A stretch of DNA of 10,511 bases from a virus: UHGV virus genome UHGV-0048736; one strand, given 5' to 3'. This document shows positions 1,981 to 10,461 of this stretch, in pieces; position 1 is the first letter of the stretch; the number at the start of each line of letters is the position of its first letter. The translations under genes and the position numbers were made by a program. The notes below the pieces were generated by a model. The model saw only the letters and a program-made list of their open reading frames with translations, was not told the origin of the DNA and did not search any database.

Positions 1981-2394
1981 TCAGATGGTTTTCAGTATGC
2001 GATCGATGTCGCCGTCATCGCCCTGGTTTCTGCCATCGTATGCCATGCCAGCTGATACGGCTTGCGGGCTGTGCATGTCCATAAAGTTTTCAAAGGCTGC
2101 GGTAAGTTCCGGCGCAACCTTCGGACGTTCCTGCTCTATGGTCATGCTAAGGATGCTTTTAGCCGTACCAACATCGATACAAGGCACGTTTGCCATTGCA
2201 CGTAACAGCGGCTGATAGTCGCCAGATTCATCAAGCGCCATAATCGCATCAGCGCGCGGCTTGTCCTGCTCTTCCAGTTTGTTAAGTTGATATATGGCCT
2301 CGTAGGTTGATAACCCTCTGTCAGCCATTGCCCGCGCTTCGGCTTTAAATTTACTCGCCAGCGGTAGCGTCATGATGCTTTCATTCGTTGCCAT
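1981..2394 (-). CDS. Hypothetical head-module protein, 137 aa
   Basis: ORF with strong Shine-Dalgarno (AGGGGGAACG before ATG), 12 nt after the D-like gene; acidic C-terminal region. Function not assignable from sequence. Confidence 0.6.
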   Translation of the reverse strand: MATNESIMTLPLASKFKAEARAMADRGLSTYEAIYQLNKLEEQDKPRADAIMALDESGDYQPLLRAMANVPCIDVGTAKSILSMTIEQERPKVAPELTAAFENFMDMHSPQAVSAGMAYDGRNQGDDGDIDRILKTI

Positions 2395-5107: not shown

Positions 5108-5154
5108 TTTTATTTTTACCCCCTCGTTTAAAAAGTTTTGAGTTGTGCCTCCCC

Positions 5155-5383
5155 TTGTCTACCTTATCAACCTTACTGGCCACCATGCCAGTAATGGCGC
5201 GGCTTTCAGTGGGGTAGAGTGCTTTTATCCACTATCTACCCCGTATCTACCTCCCTGTCTGATTCAGGTAAAATCAGGTAGAGAGGGTAGATAGTAGGTA
5301 GACAGTAAAAAAAGGCTGTCTACCCAAGTTAATGTACTGAATTAAATGTATTTTTCTTTACTCTGGTAGACAGGGTAGACAGC
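5155..5383. repeat. Iteron array with AT-rich spacer: putative replication origin
   Basis: About ten copies of GGTAGA(C/T/G)AG in both orientations (5155-5164, 5213-5221, 5232-5240, 5243-5251, 5277-5285, 5286-5294, 5297-5305, 5316-5325, 5365-5373, 5374-5382). AT-rich stretch at 5326-5360. Directly downstream of the primase/helicase gene. Confidence 0.65.
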
Positions 5384-5395
5384 CATTGCAACAAA

Positions 5396-7144
5396 TTATA
5401 AAAACGCGTCGCAATCGTCTGTTGTTATTGCGTTAGTCTGCGTTACTCCTTTAACTTTCCGCGTAATATATTCATGTCCGTAAACTTTCGCGGCTGGCTT
5501 CATAGCCTTGCCAAAGTCATTTACGTTTAGCGGTTTGCTCCTGCCTGCGTACGCCATAAACGCCAGATAGACGCGGTAAAGGCTGTTTCTGGTCGTGTAC
5601 TTCACTGAATCGCCACCGCCGCCCATCATCAGGCCGCGTGCTTCCTCCAGAAAATTCAGGAACTGGCAAAACTCAATAACCGGATCCGTCTGTTGCTTTA
5701 TTGCCAGTGCTTCATCACCGTCACGCTGTTCAATGAGTAAAGCCCGTGCCTTTTCAGGGTCGGCAAAGTTCGCCAGCAAGCGGCGGATAATGACAGGGAT
5801 TTCAGCCGCGATCTTTTCCGGTAGCTCCCTGTCTTTTTCTGCCTCGCTTACGATGTTATCGAACCGGAATATCACCCGACGACGTGCCACACCTCCGGCC
5901 CGTTCGGTGAATATCATCGGATTGTTATTGGTTGCCAGCACCACCGCCCTGATTACCGCCGTAAAACGCTTTTCATATTTCGGGTTAATTTCCACGGGGT
6001 CGCCGCCCGTGATTTTCTTGATGCCCGTTCCTTCGCCTGTATATTTCGGCTGGTCTGCCAGGACGATAAGACGACTCCCGACAACCTGCGCACGCCCACC
6101 AGCATCATCAAGCGATGTCATTTCAGCGCTTACCGTGTTTTGTTTCCCTGCCAGAAGGCTGGCTATGTGTGTGAATGTACTTTTACCGCTCCCGCCGTCT
6201 CCGGTGGCCTCAATAAACATCTGCCAGTCGTACCGGTTCGCCATAATCATGTACAGCGCGGCACATATACGCATCATCTTGCGCGGGTCTTTTCCGGCTG
6301 CGTGCTCAAGCCATTTATGAAAGTTTGGCGCGTTATCGCGGATGTTCTCCCCGGGTGCTGGTGGCGTGTACTCAATGCCGTTGTGCGTGGTGATCCAGTT
6401 CTCCGGCGTGTGCGGGGAAAATTCCCCCGTTTTCAGGTCAAGCGCACCATTGGCGAACGGCAGCAAATCGCCGGACGGCTCGCCCATTGGTTCGGCAATA
6501 ACTTTTAACGCTTCCACGGCGTTATTGATTACGCGCTTGCTGAAAGTGGCCCTGTGCTCTGAATAGATCGCCACCATTTCGCGGCTCAGCTCCATTGTGC
6601 TGACCGGACACCATACCCCGCCGCGCCATACGTGAACGATTTCACTTTCAGGATGCACACAAACGCCATCAAAGCGCTCGGCAAGCAGCTGCGCACGCTC
6701 ACTGTCTGCCATTTGTGCCAGTTGCGTATTTTTCTGCTCCGGCATGGTAAGCCCTGCGGCAATATTTTCACGCTCAGCATTCAGATAGCGCCGCCAGTTT
6801 TCACACTTCTGGACGTGCATTCCTTCGGGGTAAAAATTTGCGTCCTGAATATCTGCCGCCGCCAGCTTCTGACCAATCTTTTTGGTCTCCACCAAATCCA
6901 GTTCTCCGGCCTGGTACAGCCTTACGCGCTTTTTCCCATCCGGAACAATTTTCAGTGCATCAAGTTCGGCAAGCTGATTTGGCCCAAGCCACACAGGCGG
7001 CACATTATCGCCGGATGCGGGGCCATCCTGCTCCTGCCATTGTTTCGCGTGCGACCAGGCATCACTACCCGCGAAAATAATTACCTCTGTGTCTTTGTGT
7101 TTTATTCCGCGTGGCTGTTTTTTTACGTTCGGTGCCAGTTTCAT
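5396..7144 (-). CDS. Replication protein: primase / SF3 (D5- or P4-alpha-type) helicase
   Basis: 582 aa. Walker A EATGDGGSGKSTF, downstream Walker B-like hydrophobic stretch (RLIVLADQP) and C-terminal region typical of P4-family primase/helicase; N-terminal roughly 250 aa is primase-like. ATGA overlap with the upstream 99-aa gene; CAGGGG Shine-Dalgarno. Confidence 0.9.
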   Translation of the reverse strand: MKLAPNVKKQPRGIKHKDTEVIIFAGSDAWSHAKQWQEQDGPASGDNVPPVWLGPNQLAELDALKIVPDGKKRVRLYQAGELDLVETKKIGQKLAAADIQDANFYPEGMHVQKCENWRRYLNAERENIAAGLTMPEQKNTQLAQMADSERAQLLAERFDGVCVHPESEIVHVWRGGVWCPVSTMELSREMVAIYSEHRATFSKRVINNAVEALKVIAEPMGEPSGDLLPFANGALDLKTGEFSPHTPENWITTHNGIEYTPPAPGENIRDNAPNFHKWLEHAAGKDPRKMMRICAALYMIMANRYDWQMFIEATGDGGSGKSTFTHIASLLAGKQNTVSAEMTSLDDAGGRAQVVGSRLIVLADQPKYTGEGTGIKKITGGDPVEINPKYEKRFTAVIRAVVLATNNNPMIFTERAGGVARRRVIFRFDNIVSEAEKDRELPEKIAAEIPVIIRRLLANFADPEKARALLIEQRDGDEALAIKQQTDPVIEFCQFLNFLEEARGLMMGGGGDSVKYTTRNSLYRVYLAFMAYAGRSKPLNVNDFGKAMKPAAKVYGHEYITRKVKGVTQTNAITTDDCDAFL

Positions 7145-7445: not shown

Positions 7446-7673
7446 TTATTCTCCGGTGTGCTGCGCTTTATTATTCTCGTGAATTGCCATCACTGTATTT
7501 AATTCATTAATAACAGGCGTTAATAGCGTACGCACGGCAGAAAACATCATTGAATCAGATTCATCGCCACTTTCCGGCACATCAATTAACTTAAGTAGTA
7601 ATGCGTCCATTTCCTTTGCGCGGATTAATGCGTTTTCAGAATGAACAAGAACATCAAAGGGTATTTTATGCAT
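7446..7673 (-). CDS. Hypothetical protein, 75 aa
   Basis: ORF with CAGGGGGTGAG Shine-Dalgarno; acidic small protein; 5-nt gap to the next gene. Confidence 0.55.
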   Translation of the reverse strand: MHKIPFDVLVHSENALIRAKEMDALLLKLIDVPESGDESDSMMFSAVRTLLTPVINELNTVMAIHENNKAQHTGE

Positions 7674-7869
7674 GACTCACCCCCTGGCGAATACGGGCAG
7701 CGAATACCATCACGCAGCCATCAGGAGATTGCTGACGCGCTTCCTGTTCGCTGGTGGCCTCAATGGTAATCACGCGCGGTTGTGCAGTGCTCAGGGTGAT
7801 AAAACGCCAGATGTATTTATTCAGGTTGTGCGAGTCCCGCCCTTGCGGGTGTGTGGTATGATTTCTCAT
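7666..7869 (-). CDS. Hypothetical small protein, 67 aa, first gene of the leftward early operon (possibly Icd-like; weak)
   Basis: Taken from the internal ATG at 7869 (GAGG Shine-Dalgarno 6-9 nt upstream) of a spurious 305-aa ORF. The position upstream of the primase mirrors the P4 left operon. The YIWRF...EQEARQ pattern is reminiscent of Icd-like proteins, but that is from memory only. Confidence 0.45.
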   Translation of the reverse strand: MRNHTTHPQGRDSHNLNKYIWRFITLSTAQPRVITIEATSEQEARQQSPDGCVMVFAARIRQGVSHA

Positions 7870-7965
7870 AGCTACCTCGATACTTTCGCTATCGTTGGTG
7901 GTTAGAAGCCCGGTTAGTGTTAGCGCACTGCCGGGTTTCGTCGTTTCTGCACCTTGCGCCAACAA

Positions 7966-8020
7966 GGTGTTGAACACCAATTTAAACCCAGGTGTTAAAC
8001 ACGTCAAGTGTTGAACACTT
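7966..8020. promoter_or_regulatory. Three operator-like palindromes (GTGTT-N-AACAC) in the divergent control region
   Basis: GGTGTT-G-AACACC (7966-7978), GTGTT-A-AACAC (7992-8002), AAGTGTT-G-AACACTT (8006-8020). A possible sigma70 promoter (TTGAAC -35 inside site 3, CATACT -10) faces the plus-strand regulator gene. Confidence 0.6.
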
Positions 8021-8068
8021 ATTTTTTTTCCTGCATACTGCATTTGTTTTTTATGAGGGGTACACCAC

Positions 8069-8248
8069 ATGGCGACAAAAGCAGTAAACGCAAAATCACA
8101 AACCGTTGCGGCAAGGGTTCCGCATGAAGTTATGAACAATGTTGAGGCGGTAAAAATGCCTGGCGAAAGTACGGGGCAATTTGTTACTGCGGCATTAAAA
8201 CGAGAAGTTGAATATCGCCAGCGGCGCAAGGCCAAAGAACCAGAGTAA
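8069..8248 (+). CDS. Small putative DNA-binding regulator, 59 aa (possibly ribbon-helix-helix)
   Basis: Not in the ORF track because it is under 60 aa. ATG at 8069 with GAGGGG Shine-Dalgarno 8 nt upstream; stop TAA at 8246-8248. Translation MATKAVNAKSQTVAARVPHEVMNNVEAVKMPGESTGQFVTAALKREVEYRQRRKAKEPE has a strand-helix-helix-like pattern and a basic tail. Sits immediately downstream of the operator triplet. Confidence 0.6.
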   Translation: MATKAVNAKSQTVAARVPHEVMNNVEAVKMPGESTGQFVTAALKREVEYRQRRKAKEPE

Positions 8249-8290: not shown

Positions 8291-8479
8291 ATGCAGGACA
8301 ACACAATGACCGATAAAGAATTGACCAAAACATTATCACCGGCACGGAAAAGACGGCGCAGAAAGATAGAGCATGAATCAGAAAGATTCGCGCCATGTGC
8401 TTTTGCCCTTGAGCAATTCCTTAAAGAGTACAGGGAAAAGCGCTCATTGCAGGTATGGCAACGAACTGAACCAGACTGA
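8291..8479 (+). CDS. Hypothetical small protein (62 aa, or 57 aa from the ATG at 8306)
   Basis: ORF downstream of the small regulator gene and upstream of the plus-strand terminator. An AGGA Shine-Dalgarno-like motif favours the 8306 start. Arg-rich, no recognisable motif. Confidence 0.3.
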   Translation: MQDNTMTDKELTKTLSPARKRRRRKIEHESERFAPCAFALEQFLKEYREKRSLQVWQRTEPD

Positions 8480-8546: not shown

Positions 8547-8573
8547 GGCGACCGCCCCCGGTCGCCTTTGTTT
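8547..8573 (+). terminator. Rho-independent terminator of the rightward regulatory transcript
   Basis: GGCGACC-gccccc-GGTCGCC hairpin (8547-8566) followed by TTTGTTTT. Confidence 0.65.
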
Positions 8574-8593
8574 TATATGTCATATGCTCCCCT

Positions 8594-8803
8594 TTACGCT
8601 GCCTTACCTGAATTAATGCGATCCCGGCTTTTAACCCATTCCATAACCTCGGACAGCAGCCAACCTACAGAACGCCCACCAAGATTACGGCGAGACGGAA
8701 AGCTCCCTTTTTTCTCCAGTTCGTAGCGTGTAGTGCGACACACTCCAGTTAACTTACGACATTCATCCTCACGGATTACGCGATCTTCATTTATTTCACG
8801 CAT
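8594..8803 (-). CDS. alpA: AlpA-family phage transcriptional regulator
   Basis: 69 aa from the internal ATG at 8803 (the 98-aa ORF in the track starts at a GTG inside AT-rich promoter-like sequence). C-terminal half ...RRNLGGRSVGWLLSEVMEWVKSR fits the AlpA-family pattern as I recall it. Located next to the integrase as in P4-like elements and PICIs. Confidence 0.7.
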   Translation of the reverse strand: MREINEDRVIREDECRKLTGVCRTTRYELEKKGSFPSRRNLGGRSVGWLLSEVMEWVKSRDRINSGKAA

Positions 8804-8926
8804 ACAAAAACCTACATAAAAATTACGTATATAAACTTTTCTCTTAGCTGTAGATATATGAGATCGGATATTACTTAGATTCTTTTTCACCTATTAAATT
8901 AAAAACACAACCATGCTAAAGGCTTT

Positions 8927-9222: not shown

Positions 9223-10461
9223 TCAAGAATTTTGGGGGTAAATTCGCGGGGTCATAACAACGATTTTTTCATCATTGTTCTGGAGAAGCTCGAGACGGTC
9301 TACCCATAGATTAAGAGCATCACGTTTTGCATCAAGGTAGCGGGAGTGGTTATAGACTCGTTGCATCCCTGGCATCTGGTGGGCTGTAAGCTGCTCGACA
9401 ATATGCGGATCCACGCCTAAATCGTTCAGTATGGTTGTAAATGTGTGCCGGATATCGTGTAACGTCCAGGGGGCTTGATTAATTCGTCTGTGCGCTGTTC
9501 TTCCGTACTCTGCTACCGAAGATTGTCCTTTCAGTTCACCAAGCAATAAGCCTGTGTGTCTGTTCTGCTCCACCAGTTGCGTGACGAACGGCAAAATGCT
9601 TTCCGGTATTGGCCTGAATATGGCGACCTTCGTTTTGCTGTGCTCCTTCGGTACTGTCCAGAGCATTTCTTTAAAATCCCACTCCTGCACCTCAGAGCGC
9701 CTTAGCTCAGTGGTACGGCATCCAAAAACAATCAGGAGGCGAATTAGGGCGCTGTAGTATGGCGGGAATATTTTGTCATCCAGGGCGCGGAGTAATTCCC
9801 CAAGCTCCTTATTTGTTAGTACGCGCTCGCTCACTTCTGCTTTTTTTCCCACATCACCGACAACCATATCATCAAGAACGTTGCTGATTGCGTATCGTCG
9901 TTTTCGGCAGTACTTAAGCGCCTGTTTGCATACCTGTAGCAAAAATCCGGCAGATACTGGGCTTCGCTTTGCCATCTGGTCAAAACATGCCAACCAGTGC
10001 CGTAGCTCGCATTTTTCCAACGGCAAAGCGCCAATCTGGCTGATTATGTGTTTATTGATCCGGCTTTTCAGTGATTCGTAGTCAGTGCGCTTTTCCTTTG
10101 CATACGATTCAAGCCAGTAAGTGAGCGCTTCCTTAACTGTCACGGGGGCTAACGCATCCTGTACAGCACGATTAAGCTCATAGCGCGGATTTTTCCCCTC
10201 AGCCAGCCAGGCGCGACACTGTGCTGCTTTTTCCCTGGCTGCTTTCAGGCTCAGATCGGGATAATTGCCCAGTCTCAGACGTTCCGGTGATACCTGCCTA
10301 CCAGTTCCGGCCCTGTAAGTGAAATACCAGGTTAACAGGCCGCTGGTGGAATGTCTTACGCTAAGATTGCCACCGTCATTAAAAAAGGCGTTTTTTGTGG
10401 TTGGTGATCCGCTTAATTTTCGTAAAAGAGTGTCGCTAAGTCTATGAATTGCGCTGCTCAT
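9223..10461 (-). CDS. int: Tyrosine site-specific integrase, P4-type
   Basis: 412 aa. C-terminal catalytic region with HDIRHT (His-x-x-Arg) and a downstream tyrosine (RVYNHSRYL); N-terminal region typical of the P4-integrase arm-binding domain. Start codon 25 nt from the right att repeat. Confidence 0.93.
   Translation of the reverse strand: MSSAIHRLSDTLLRKLSGSPTTKNAFFNDGGNLSVRHSTSGLLTWYFTYRAGTGRQVSPERLRLGNYPDLSLKAAREKAAQCRAWLAEGKNPRYELNRAVQDALAPVTVKEALTYWLESYAKEKRTDYESLKSRINKHIISQIGALPLEKCELRHWLACFDQMAKRSPVSAGFLLQVCKQALKYCRKRRYAISNVLDDMVVGDVGKKAEVSERVLTNKELGELLRALDDKIFPPYYSALIRLLIVFGCRTTELRRSEVQEWDFKEMLWTVPKEHSKTKVAIFRPIPESILPFVTQLVEQNRHTGLLLGELKGQSSVAEYGRTAHRRINQAPWTLHDIRHTFTTILNDLGVDPHIVEQLTAHQMPGMQRVYNHSRYLDAKRDALNLWVDRLELLQNNDEKIVVMTPRIYPQNS

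Follow-up and report, generated by a model that had tools for sequence, protein, structure and literature searches.

What controls the leftward early operon of the virus genome UHGV-0048736 is the question raised by the interval from position 7870 to 8248 of this 10.5-kb (10,511 nucleotides, nt) stretch, hereafter the window. The original prediction had described the interval as a divergent switch of the repressor/antirepressor kind, in which three palindromes with a common half-site lie between the early operon and an unlisted gene for a small DNA-binding protein of 59 amino acids (aa). All evidence on the control region presented here is computational, and it leads us to regard the interval, with reasonable confidence, as the master control region of a satellite island, placing two locks on the early operon. 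The replication operon is probably kept silent jointly by a repressor with its operators and by an antisense RNA.

The palindromes were fully confirmed. All three are exact matches to GTGTTNAACAC, their centres lie 25 and 16 bp apart, as first described, and they are the only matches in the window when up to one mismatch is allowed; shuffled windows held a mean of 0.29 matches, and none of 200 reached three. Their placement between divergent genes also stands, with the Icd-like gene on one side and the open reading frame (ORF) of the 59-aa protein on the other. The features of this region, read from left to right, are as follows.

7666-7869, minus strand: Icd-like gene, 67 aa (NCBIfam NF033153, E 1e-18; RefSeq annotation)
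7950-7969, minus strand: inverted repeat CACCTTG/CAAGGTG, which would form a stem-loop where the leftward mRNA has its predicted 5' end
7967-7977: operator O1, exact palindrome GTGTTGAACAC, centre 7972, 102 nt ahead of the start codon of the 59-aa gene
7979-8007, minus strand: predicted leftward early promoter PL (-35 TTGACG at 8007-8002, 17-nt spacer, -10 TAAATT at 7984-7979; promoter scan)
7992-8002: operator O2, exact palindrome GTGTTAAACAC, centre 7997, 77 nt ahead of the start codon of the 59-aa gene
8008-8018: operator site 3, exact palindrome GTGTTGAACAC, centre 8013, 61 nt ahead of the start codon of the 59-aa gene
8011-8039, plus strand: predicted rightward promoter PR of the 59-aa gene (-35 TTGAAC at 8011-8016, 17-nt spacer, -10 CATACT at 8034-8039; read from sequence)
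8069-8248, plus strand: 59-aa gene of the YlcI/YnfO family, with the Shine-Dalgarno sequence GAGGGG at 8055-8060

The three sites are placed on the core elements of both promoters. O1 lies just downstream of the -10 of PL, over the predicted leftward transcription start at about 7972, and O2 lies within the 17-nt spacer of PL. Site 3 overlaps the -35 of PR, which implies autoregulation. A plausible promoter overlapping site 3 had been proposed, and PR agrees with it, being the best-scoring pair and having a -10 that aligns with the (T/C)ATACT kept in homologues.

A scan of one genome per species yielded 31 loci encoding relatives of the 59-aa protein, distributed over many enterobacterial genera, and 25 of these have an intact upstream region. 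Absence of the palindromes from homologous islands had been named as an observation that would refute the switch; instead, sites recur in the 25 related loci. A site is found 99-103 nt ahead of the start codon (the O1 position) in most of them, with a class-specific sequence, and another 76-78 nt ahead (the O2 position) in nearly all. These two sites are followed in a recurring order by ACGTCAA (the leftward -35 TTGACG), a T-rich stretch, (T/C)ATACT and a third site. The -35/-10 pair of PL stands at the same position in 22 of the 25 loci and within 1 nt in two more (-35 at 62 and -10 at 90 nt ahead of the start codon), with a spacer of mostly 17 nt and scores of 8.5-10.5 out of a maximum of 12.5, the latter comprising 12 hexamer matches and 0.5 for a 17-nt spacer. 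In most relatives the third site is located about 32 nt ahead of the start codon, directly past the rightward -10 and at the start of the regulator's own promoter, and a site at 61 nt occurs only in the window and in loci from Edwardsiella (L002) and Kosakonia (L004), the latter having both third-site positions. A stem-loop at the same place as that at 7950-7969, formed by other sequences, is present in most of the 25 loci; it could be an mRNA stabiliser or an extra half-operator.

This comparison gives strong support to one half of the switch as originally conceived, namely that the palindromes are operators of a small divergent DNA-binding protein controlling the early operon. The other half, an antirepressor partner, found no support. 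No ant-like gene was detected in the window, where only a BRO-N pseudogene fragment is annotated. From the conserved placement of its putative operators, their joint change with its N-terminal arm and predicted β-strand, and their independence of AlpA, the Icd-like protein and the primase (see below), we regard the 59-aa protein as very probably a repressor of the early operon that also controls its own gene. It is unlikely that the protein, though binding the sites, is mainly an autoregulator, or a partition or packaging accessory, exerting no real control over the early operon while AlpA alone decides on induction. Over-expression of AlpA does suffice for replication of the related island EcCICFT073 (PMC6092414), and for YlcI (DLP12) and YnfO (Qin) of E. 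coli K-12, which belong to the same NCBIfam family (NF041551), neither a regulatory role nor any other function was found in the searchable literature. However, O1 (between -10 and start) and O2 (in the spacer) sit on the conserved PL in almost all loci, and sites at these places would have no role in control of the protein's own promoter.

The repressor is probably only one of the two locks. The left part of the interval, from 7870 to about 7946, had been overlooked in the earlier reading, and it is filled by a predicted antisense RNA gene with the following elements.

7854-7862, plus strand: extended -10 TGgTATGAT of the antisense RNA, in codons 3-5 of the Icd-like gene (read from sequence)
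7870 to about 7946, plus strand: SymR-like cis-antisense RNA of about 77 nt, with two hairpins, a promoter inside the Icd-like ORF and an inferred 3' end
7871-7882 paired with 7890-7902: hairpin 1, carrying the anti-Shine-Dalgarno CCTC at 7875-7878
7905-7919 paired with 7926-7939: hairpin 2
7936-7948, plus strand only: U-rich tail TTTCGTCGTTTCT, after hairpin 2

The RNA region is kept in 26 distinct loci, for which RNAalifold gave the two hairpins with 26 pairs, 16 of them showing compensatory changes. On the plus strand 96.6% of the alignment cells are paired, compared with 35-47% in slid-partner controls, and the covariation score of 0.363 (0.168 in shuffles) was reached by none of 500 shuffles. 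The strands differ markedly: 114 cells are G-U pairs, which are C-A mismatches on the minus strand, as against 2 in the opposite direction; pairing on the minus strand amounts to 80.0%; and the alifold energy is -34.8 kcal/mol for the plus strand and -13.1 for the minus strand.

A relation to the SymR RNA of E. coli K-12 was found in both directions. The Rfam symR model matches the plus strand at 7870-7942 with 33.3 bits (E 0.003 window-wide, 2e-4 locally). A covariance model built from the related loci (R1), which scores 75.9 bits in the window and 63.2 bits in the island of strain Nissle 1917, also recovered symR as annotated in K-12, full-length and in the right orientation, with 34.9 bits (E 2e-6 in 51 kb, 3e-7 in the 6-kb locus with filters off). 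R1 matches 27 of the 31 loci, always immediately left of the operators, and has no match in P4. Each of the 26 loci has a -10-like hexamer whose end lies exactly 7 nt ahead of the base aligned to the annotated 5' end of K-12 symR, and Nissle has TGgTATAAT, a perfect extended -10, as promoter. Kawano et al. abolished SymR by mutating TAGAAT, the K-12 hexamer in this register (PMC1891008).

The predicted RNA of the window has the structure of the SymR type, being about 77 nt long with two hairpins, cis-antisense to the 5' end of its target and with a promoter in the target ORF. The Shine-Dalgarno sequence of the Icd-like gene (7879-7874, minus strand) lies in the stretch to which it is complementary, and in most relatives the anti-Shine-Dalgarno lies in the loop of hairpin 1. 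In contrast, its target is Icd-like (NF033153) and not symE, and the elements upstream are palindromes, not LexA boxes. From these comparisons of sequence and predicted structure we conclude that 7870 to about 7946 encodes a SymR-like cis-antisense RNA of about 77 nt, a distant SymR relative with a different target. The searchable literature yielded no report of an antisense RNA at an Icd-like gene.

Could the same segment instead belong only to the leftward mRNA, as a folded 5' leader and perhaps, as with P4 CI or P1 c4, an immunity RNA of the sense strand, with no antisense RNA made at all? P4 and P1 both carry a sense-strand C4-family RNA in the leader ahead of an icd-type gene, P4 scoring 74.9, 60.8 and 44.1 bits for Rfam C4, isrK and c4-a1b1, and the minus-strand leader of the window folds as well (z -3.1). 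We nevertheless consider this quite improbable, because the G-U cells, the degree of pairing and the alifold energies given above all favour the plus strand, the U-rich tail is confined to that strand, the -10 keeps its fixed 7-nt distance in 26 of 26 loci, and the reciprocal matches are with an experimentally characterised antisense RNA. A sense C4/CI RNA of the P4/P1 style was rejected directly, as the window has no C4, isrK or c4-a1b1 match (Rfam RF01695 clan) with E up to 10 and P4 matches strongly.

Seven loci (L010, L012, L014, L017, L020, L023 and L026, from Xenorhabdus and one metagenome-assembled genome of Enterobacteriaceae) combine a first leftward ORF of only 41-43 aa that is poorly conserved with high conservation of the antisense RNA and of the RNA's promoter, which suggests that there the RNA/leader rather than the Icd-like protein is the constrained part. 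Four other loci (L013, L021, L022 and L032) have lost part or all of the operator region by rearrangement and are probably decaying copies; in L022 the antisense-RNA hairpin abuts the regulator gene, and the Icd-like start codon is mutated, with CAC for CAT.

Returning to the repressor, which protein reads the sites can be approached through their sequences. All two to four sites of one locus switch sequence jointly, and the loci form ten operator classes, each paired with one class of N-terminal arm and predicted β-strand (residues 11-15) of the regulator.

Residues 11-15 QT[VLI]AA: site GTGTTGAACAC
Residues 11-15 QSLKS: site GTGTGGCCCAC
Residues 11-15 [KR]KLEA: site GTGTCAGCCAC
Residues 11-15 KRFDV: site GTGTCGGACAC
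Residues 11-15 QKTSV: site GTGACGGACAC
Residues 11-15 QK[VL]Q[AT]: site GTGGA[CG]TCCAC
Residues 11-15 QKMSA (N-terminus M[TS]RDNVNN): site CTGGCACCCAG
Residues 11-15 QKIQA (N-terminus MTRDHINK): site CTGGATTCCAG
Residues 11-15 AQKKI (Klebsiella): site GTG[CT]ACCCCCAC-like
Residues 11-15 QSLTA (Nissle, EcCICFT073-type): site GTGnCTTACAC-like

That two to four dispersed copies turn to the same new 11-mer argues for co-evolution of protein and operator, since simple linkage explains class-specific neighbours and not concerted change. The signature expected of a ribbon-helix-helix (RHH) regulator, namely repeated or palindromic operators over the regulated promoter and specificity residing in the β-strand, is therefore present as far as computation can tell. 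In addition, the locus from Edwardsiella (L002) encodes a 59-aa protein identical to that of the window over 57 aligned residues and has identical sites, and the other proteins of the two islands are far apart (AlpA 26%, Int 22%, primase 50% and Icd-like 53% identical). As recombination breakpoints separate the candidate readers, the 59-aa protein is the only consistent partner of the sites, and the linkage analysis rejected AlpA, the Icd-like protein, the primase and host factors as site readers.

Two assignments of the sites to other readers have to be set against the 59-aa protein. We give little credence to the idea that a host factor or another island protein reads the palindromes, the latter being either the primase (with the palindromes as origin iterons) or the Icd-like protein. 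The Icd-like family is labelled 'transcriptional repressor' in PHROGs (PHROG 6196/1743) and the palindromes lie near the replication operon, but the window and Nissle, like L008 and L019, belong to different operator classes and have Icd-like proteins that are 89% and 85% identical, respectively, and one operator class can go with unrelated first leftward genes (16% identity between the window and L003). The primase is only 50% identical in L002 despite identical sites, a separate iteron cluster, GGTAGA(C/T)AG, sits past the primase gene, and two E. coli islands with different site sequences speak against a host factor. Slimmer still is the chance that the palindromes are sites from which AlpA turns on the leftward operon: AlpA activates EcCICFT073 genes and is needed for induction (PMC6092414), and its gene alpA is found some 350 bp to the right of that for the 59-aa protein, yet L027 shares its AlpA DNA-binding segment with L010, L013, L014 and L020 and has CTGGATTCCAG sites where they have GTGTCAGCCAC, the window and L002 have the same sites with AlpA proteins just 26% identical, and O1 and O2 over the core promoter and start site are in a repressing, not an activating, position.

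The 59-aa protein, to which the sites are thus best assigned, is the product of a real gene with a Shine-Dalgarno sequence, although the gene is not new: RefSeq already holds it as WP_000201461.1, a YlcI/YnfO family protein, and it was missing from the ORF list because 59 aa is one residue below the 60-aa default cut-off. It belongs to NCBIfam NF041551 (59.7 bits, E 2.1e-16, residues 9-50; the curated cutoff is 30 bits), a family for which no function was found in the searchable literature. Its homologues form 74 clusters, from Escherichia, Salmonella, Klebsiella, Pectobacterium, Serratia, Proteus, Xenorhabdus and others, and it is 49-86% identical across genera. The one relative found in a phage collection is in a 16.5-kb 'induced prophage', probably a satellite. 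The regulator of the Nissle island (L033 7388-7693) has 101 aa, with a C-terminal extension of about 40 residues.

The fold of the protein was sought by several routes. A Pfam search gave only a chance-level Med10 match, PDB searches with the single sequence and with a profile gave nothing meaningful, and a Foldseek search of the model against PDB gave nothing. The AlphaFold2 model, built from a 27-sequence alignment (predicted local distance difference test, pLDDT, 79.7), has an ill-defined N-terminal segment and helices at 19-28 and 35-56, and its best fold matches are RHH proteins. With hhalign, against the sequences of Arc and Mnt, R16-V17-P18-x-E20-V21 was aligned weakly on R13-W14-P15-R16-E17-V18 of Arc (E 0.015, probability 3%), a register that places T12, A14 and R16 on the base-contacting Q9, N11 and R13 of Arc; the comparison with Mnt was not significant. 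Taken together, we consider an RHH fold of the protein probable.

Computation gave the sites and where they are conserved, the concerted covariation between sites and protein, the structure and strand of the RNA and its relation to SymR. From there we infer DNA binding, repression, transcription starts, stoichiometry and RNA expression in the following scheme. In the first lock, the YlcI/YnfO-family RHH dimer would bind the 11-bp palindromes, probably as one dimer per site, with its β-sheet contacting the central bases and its N-terminal arm the outer bases. Occupation of O1 on the PL start and of O2 in the PL spacer would block RNA polymerase at PL, and occupation of site 3 would cover the -35 of PR, giving negative autoregulation. 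In the second lock, a constitutive SymR-like RNA would be transcribed from the extended -10 in the Icd-like ORF; it would be fully complementary to the PL leader of about 100 nt from the Shine-Dalgarno sequence outward, and would block translation initiation of the Icd-like gene. Because the Icd-like family is named after the cell-division inhibitor of P1, the RNA and the Icd-like protein may form a type I toxin-antitoxin-like pair. The RNA would probably also destabilise or polarise the transcript, as SymR does for symE; SymR lowers symE translation more than the mRNA level (PMC1891008).

Some observations weigh against this scheme. The third site is not positionally conserved, lying at 61 nt here and at 32 nt in most relatives; the RNA does not reach the Rfam symR gathering score of 61 bits, with 33.3 bits in the window and 40.4 bits in L008; and over-expression of AlpA alone induces EcCICFT073 replication, with no repressor reported (PMC6092414). 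Since AlpA over-expression is sufficient for induction, AlpA must bypass or override the locks. One speculation is that read-through from the alpA promoter enters the early operon, bypassing PL. Terminator scans bearing on such read-through were equivocal: the plus-strand terminator at 8547-8566 is unidirectional, and weak terminator-like hairpins on the minus strand are present at 8466-8442 and at the same place in L033 and L012.

Functionally, the closest known systems are the immI region of P22 and the CopG/RNAII control of pMV158. The immI region comprises the RHH repressors Mnt and Arc, the sar antisense RNA and ant. It resembles the window as read here in having a divergent RHH repressor gene, operators over an early promoter and a cis-antisense RNA on the ribosome-binding site of a downstream gene, and the R-V-P-x-E-V of the 59-aa protein is the segment weakly aligned with R-W-P-R-E-V of Arc; the operators, the target (the antirepressor in P22) and the RNA, however, are all different. 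In pMV158, a small RHH repressor (CopG) and a small antisense RNA (RNAII), which blocks a ribosome-binding site, limit the operon of the replication initiator (PMC4485353). This Gram-positive rolling-circle plasmid differs in that copG is co-transcribed with repB from one promoter, whereas the window has a divergent gene for a probable RHH protein, three separate 11-bp palindromes and an Icd-like first target in a phage satellite; the likeness is one of function.

Other systems share single elements with the window. An icd-type small ORF comes first in the P1 operon, as it does here. In P4 CI and in P1 c4-icd-ant the early operon likewise starts with a small RNA element, and the operon of the window runs on to a P4-type primase gene, but in P4 and P1 the RNA is of the sense strand, arises from the leader by processing and has repeated sequences as its targets; a tblastn search with the Icd-like protein found no homology in P4. 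The SymR RNA of the K-12 SymR/SymE pair (RF01809; PMC1891008) is related to that of the window: it is of about 77 nt with two hairpins, has its promoter in the target ORF and its 5' end at the target start codon. Both RNAs are complementary to the Shine-Dalgarno sequence and leader of their target and have the same register of -10 and start, with reciprocal matches of 33-40 bits (Rfam symR) and 34.9 bits (R1 on K-12 symR). The window differs in having an Icd-like target instead of the AbrB-fold, SOS-induced SymE, putative RHH operators instead of LexA boxes, and a location in a mobile satellite. Finally, Stl of the Staphylococcus aureus pathogenicity islands (SaPIs) and Rpr of Gram-positive phage-inducible chromosomal islands (PICIs) likewise have their genes divergently placed beside an excision/replication operon (PMC6092414), but they are larger helix-turn-helix proteins inactivated by helper-phage proteins, whereas Gram-negative PICIs are reported to be AlpA-induced. 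The repressor of Gram-negative PICIs is unclear in the literature (PMC6092414).

It is to this last group that the window itself is assigned. The stretch matches, at 100% identity, an island that sits between clpS and cspD in E. coli PA45B, and the annotated genes of the stretch all point leftward, bar one. Besides those listed above, it contains the following features.

9223-10461, leftward: integrase (annotation)
8594-8890, minus strand: AlpA, 98 aa, the ORF being extended to a GTG start
8547-8576, plus strand: terminator-like hairpin GGCGACCGCCCCCGGTCGCC (8547-8566) followed by TTTGTTTTAT (terminator scan)
5396-7144, leftward: P4-type primase (annotation)

The RefSeq call for AlpA is shorter (69 aa, 8594-8803), and in the 98-aa form the Pfam AlpA domain lies at residues 36-86. 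The leftward early operon begins with the Icd-like gene, followed by a 75-aa ORF (orf75), the gene for a DUF4222 protein, the primase gene, whose product is 40% identical to P4 alpha, and others; further leftward genes of the window encode an SSB, homologues of a major capsid and a head-decoration protein, and terS. Directly past the primase stop codon, at 5150-5390, are at least 10 copies of the iteron GGTAGA(C/T)AG in both orientations, which are probably the replication origin of the island; an Rfam 'mir-3927' match at 5220-5317 was dismissed as spurious, as it reflects the inverted iterons. EcCICFT073 has been described with capsid and decoration homologues (PMC6092414). With int, alpA, a P4-type primase gene and adjoining origin, capsid and decoration homologues and terS, the window is, by its gene content, an EcCICFT073-type Gram-negative PICI, and the Nissle 1917 island, of the same type, matches it in layout and has the same control module. 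DNA similar to the 1.5-kb control region was found in 1746 of 5426 complete E. coli genomes.

Two further ORFs were noted. A 62-aa ORF (orf62; 8291-8479, plus strand) lies downstream of the 59-aa gene, ahead of the plus-strand terminator; it matches phrog_21027 (E 1.6e-15) and is kept in the Nissle island, but RefSeq lacks it and has instead the minus-strand BRO-N pseudogene fragment there. Rightward transcription through the 59-aa gene and orf62 probably stops at the hairpin at 8547-8576. A 137-aa protein (1981-2394, minus strand), whose gene adjoins those for the capsid and decoration homologues, shows a match (E 9e-9) to the C-terminal portion of the head-maturation protease phrog_53 and may be a scaffold or protease remnant of the capsid module.

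The components proposed for this module, an RHH repressor with operators and a cis-antisense RNA, are of known kinds. What we did not find described in the searchable literature are a function of YlcI/YnfO, co-evolving specificity classes, SymR relatives in satellites and a repressor layer in Gram-negative PICIs, for which the published model rests on the activator AlpA (PMC6092414); no RHH regulator in PICIs was found in that literature either. A wider reading, which we offer tentatively and hold to be somewhat doubtful, joins these points: the YlcI/YnfO RHH protein would be the missing master repressor of Gram-negative PICIs and of PICIs that form capsids (cf-PICIs), a counterpart of Stl with many immunity classes, the SymR-family RNA would be a second lock, AlpA or the helper would override both, and E. 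coli symR/symE would be a domesticated copy of the RNA module of the satellites.

The module occurs in the EcCICFT073/Nissle-type island that is used experimentally. If the proposed two-lock scheme is right, the YlcI/YnfO family would be assigned a function, and its operator classes would constitute natural sets of orthogonal repressor/operator pairs. The SymR family, until now confined to one chromosomal toxin locus, would come to include mobile satellites throughout the Enterobacterales. For the satellites themselves, the module would add a layer to the means by which they stay silent and avoid expression of a cell-division inhibitor homologue.

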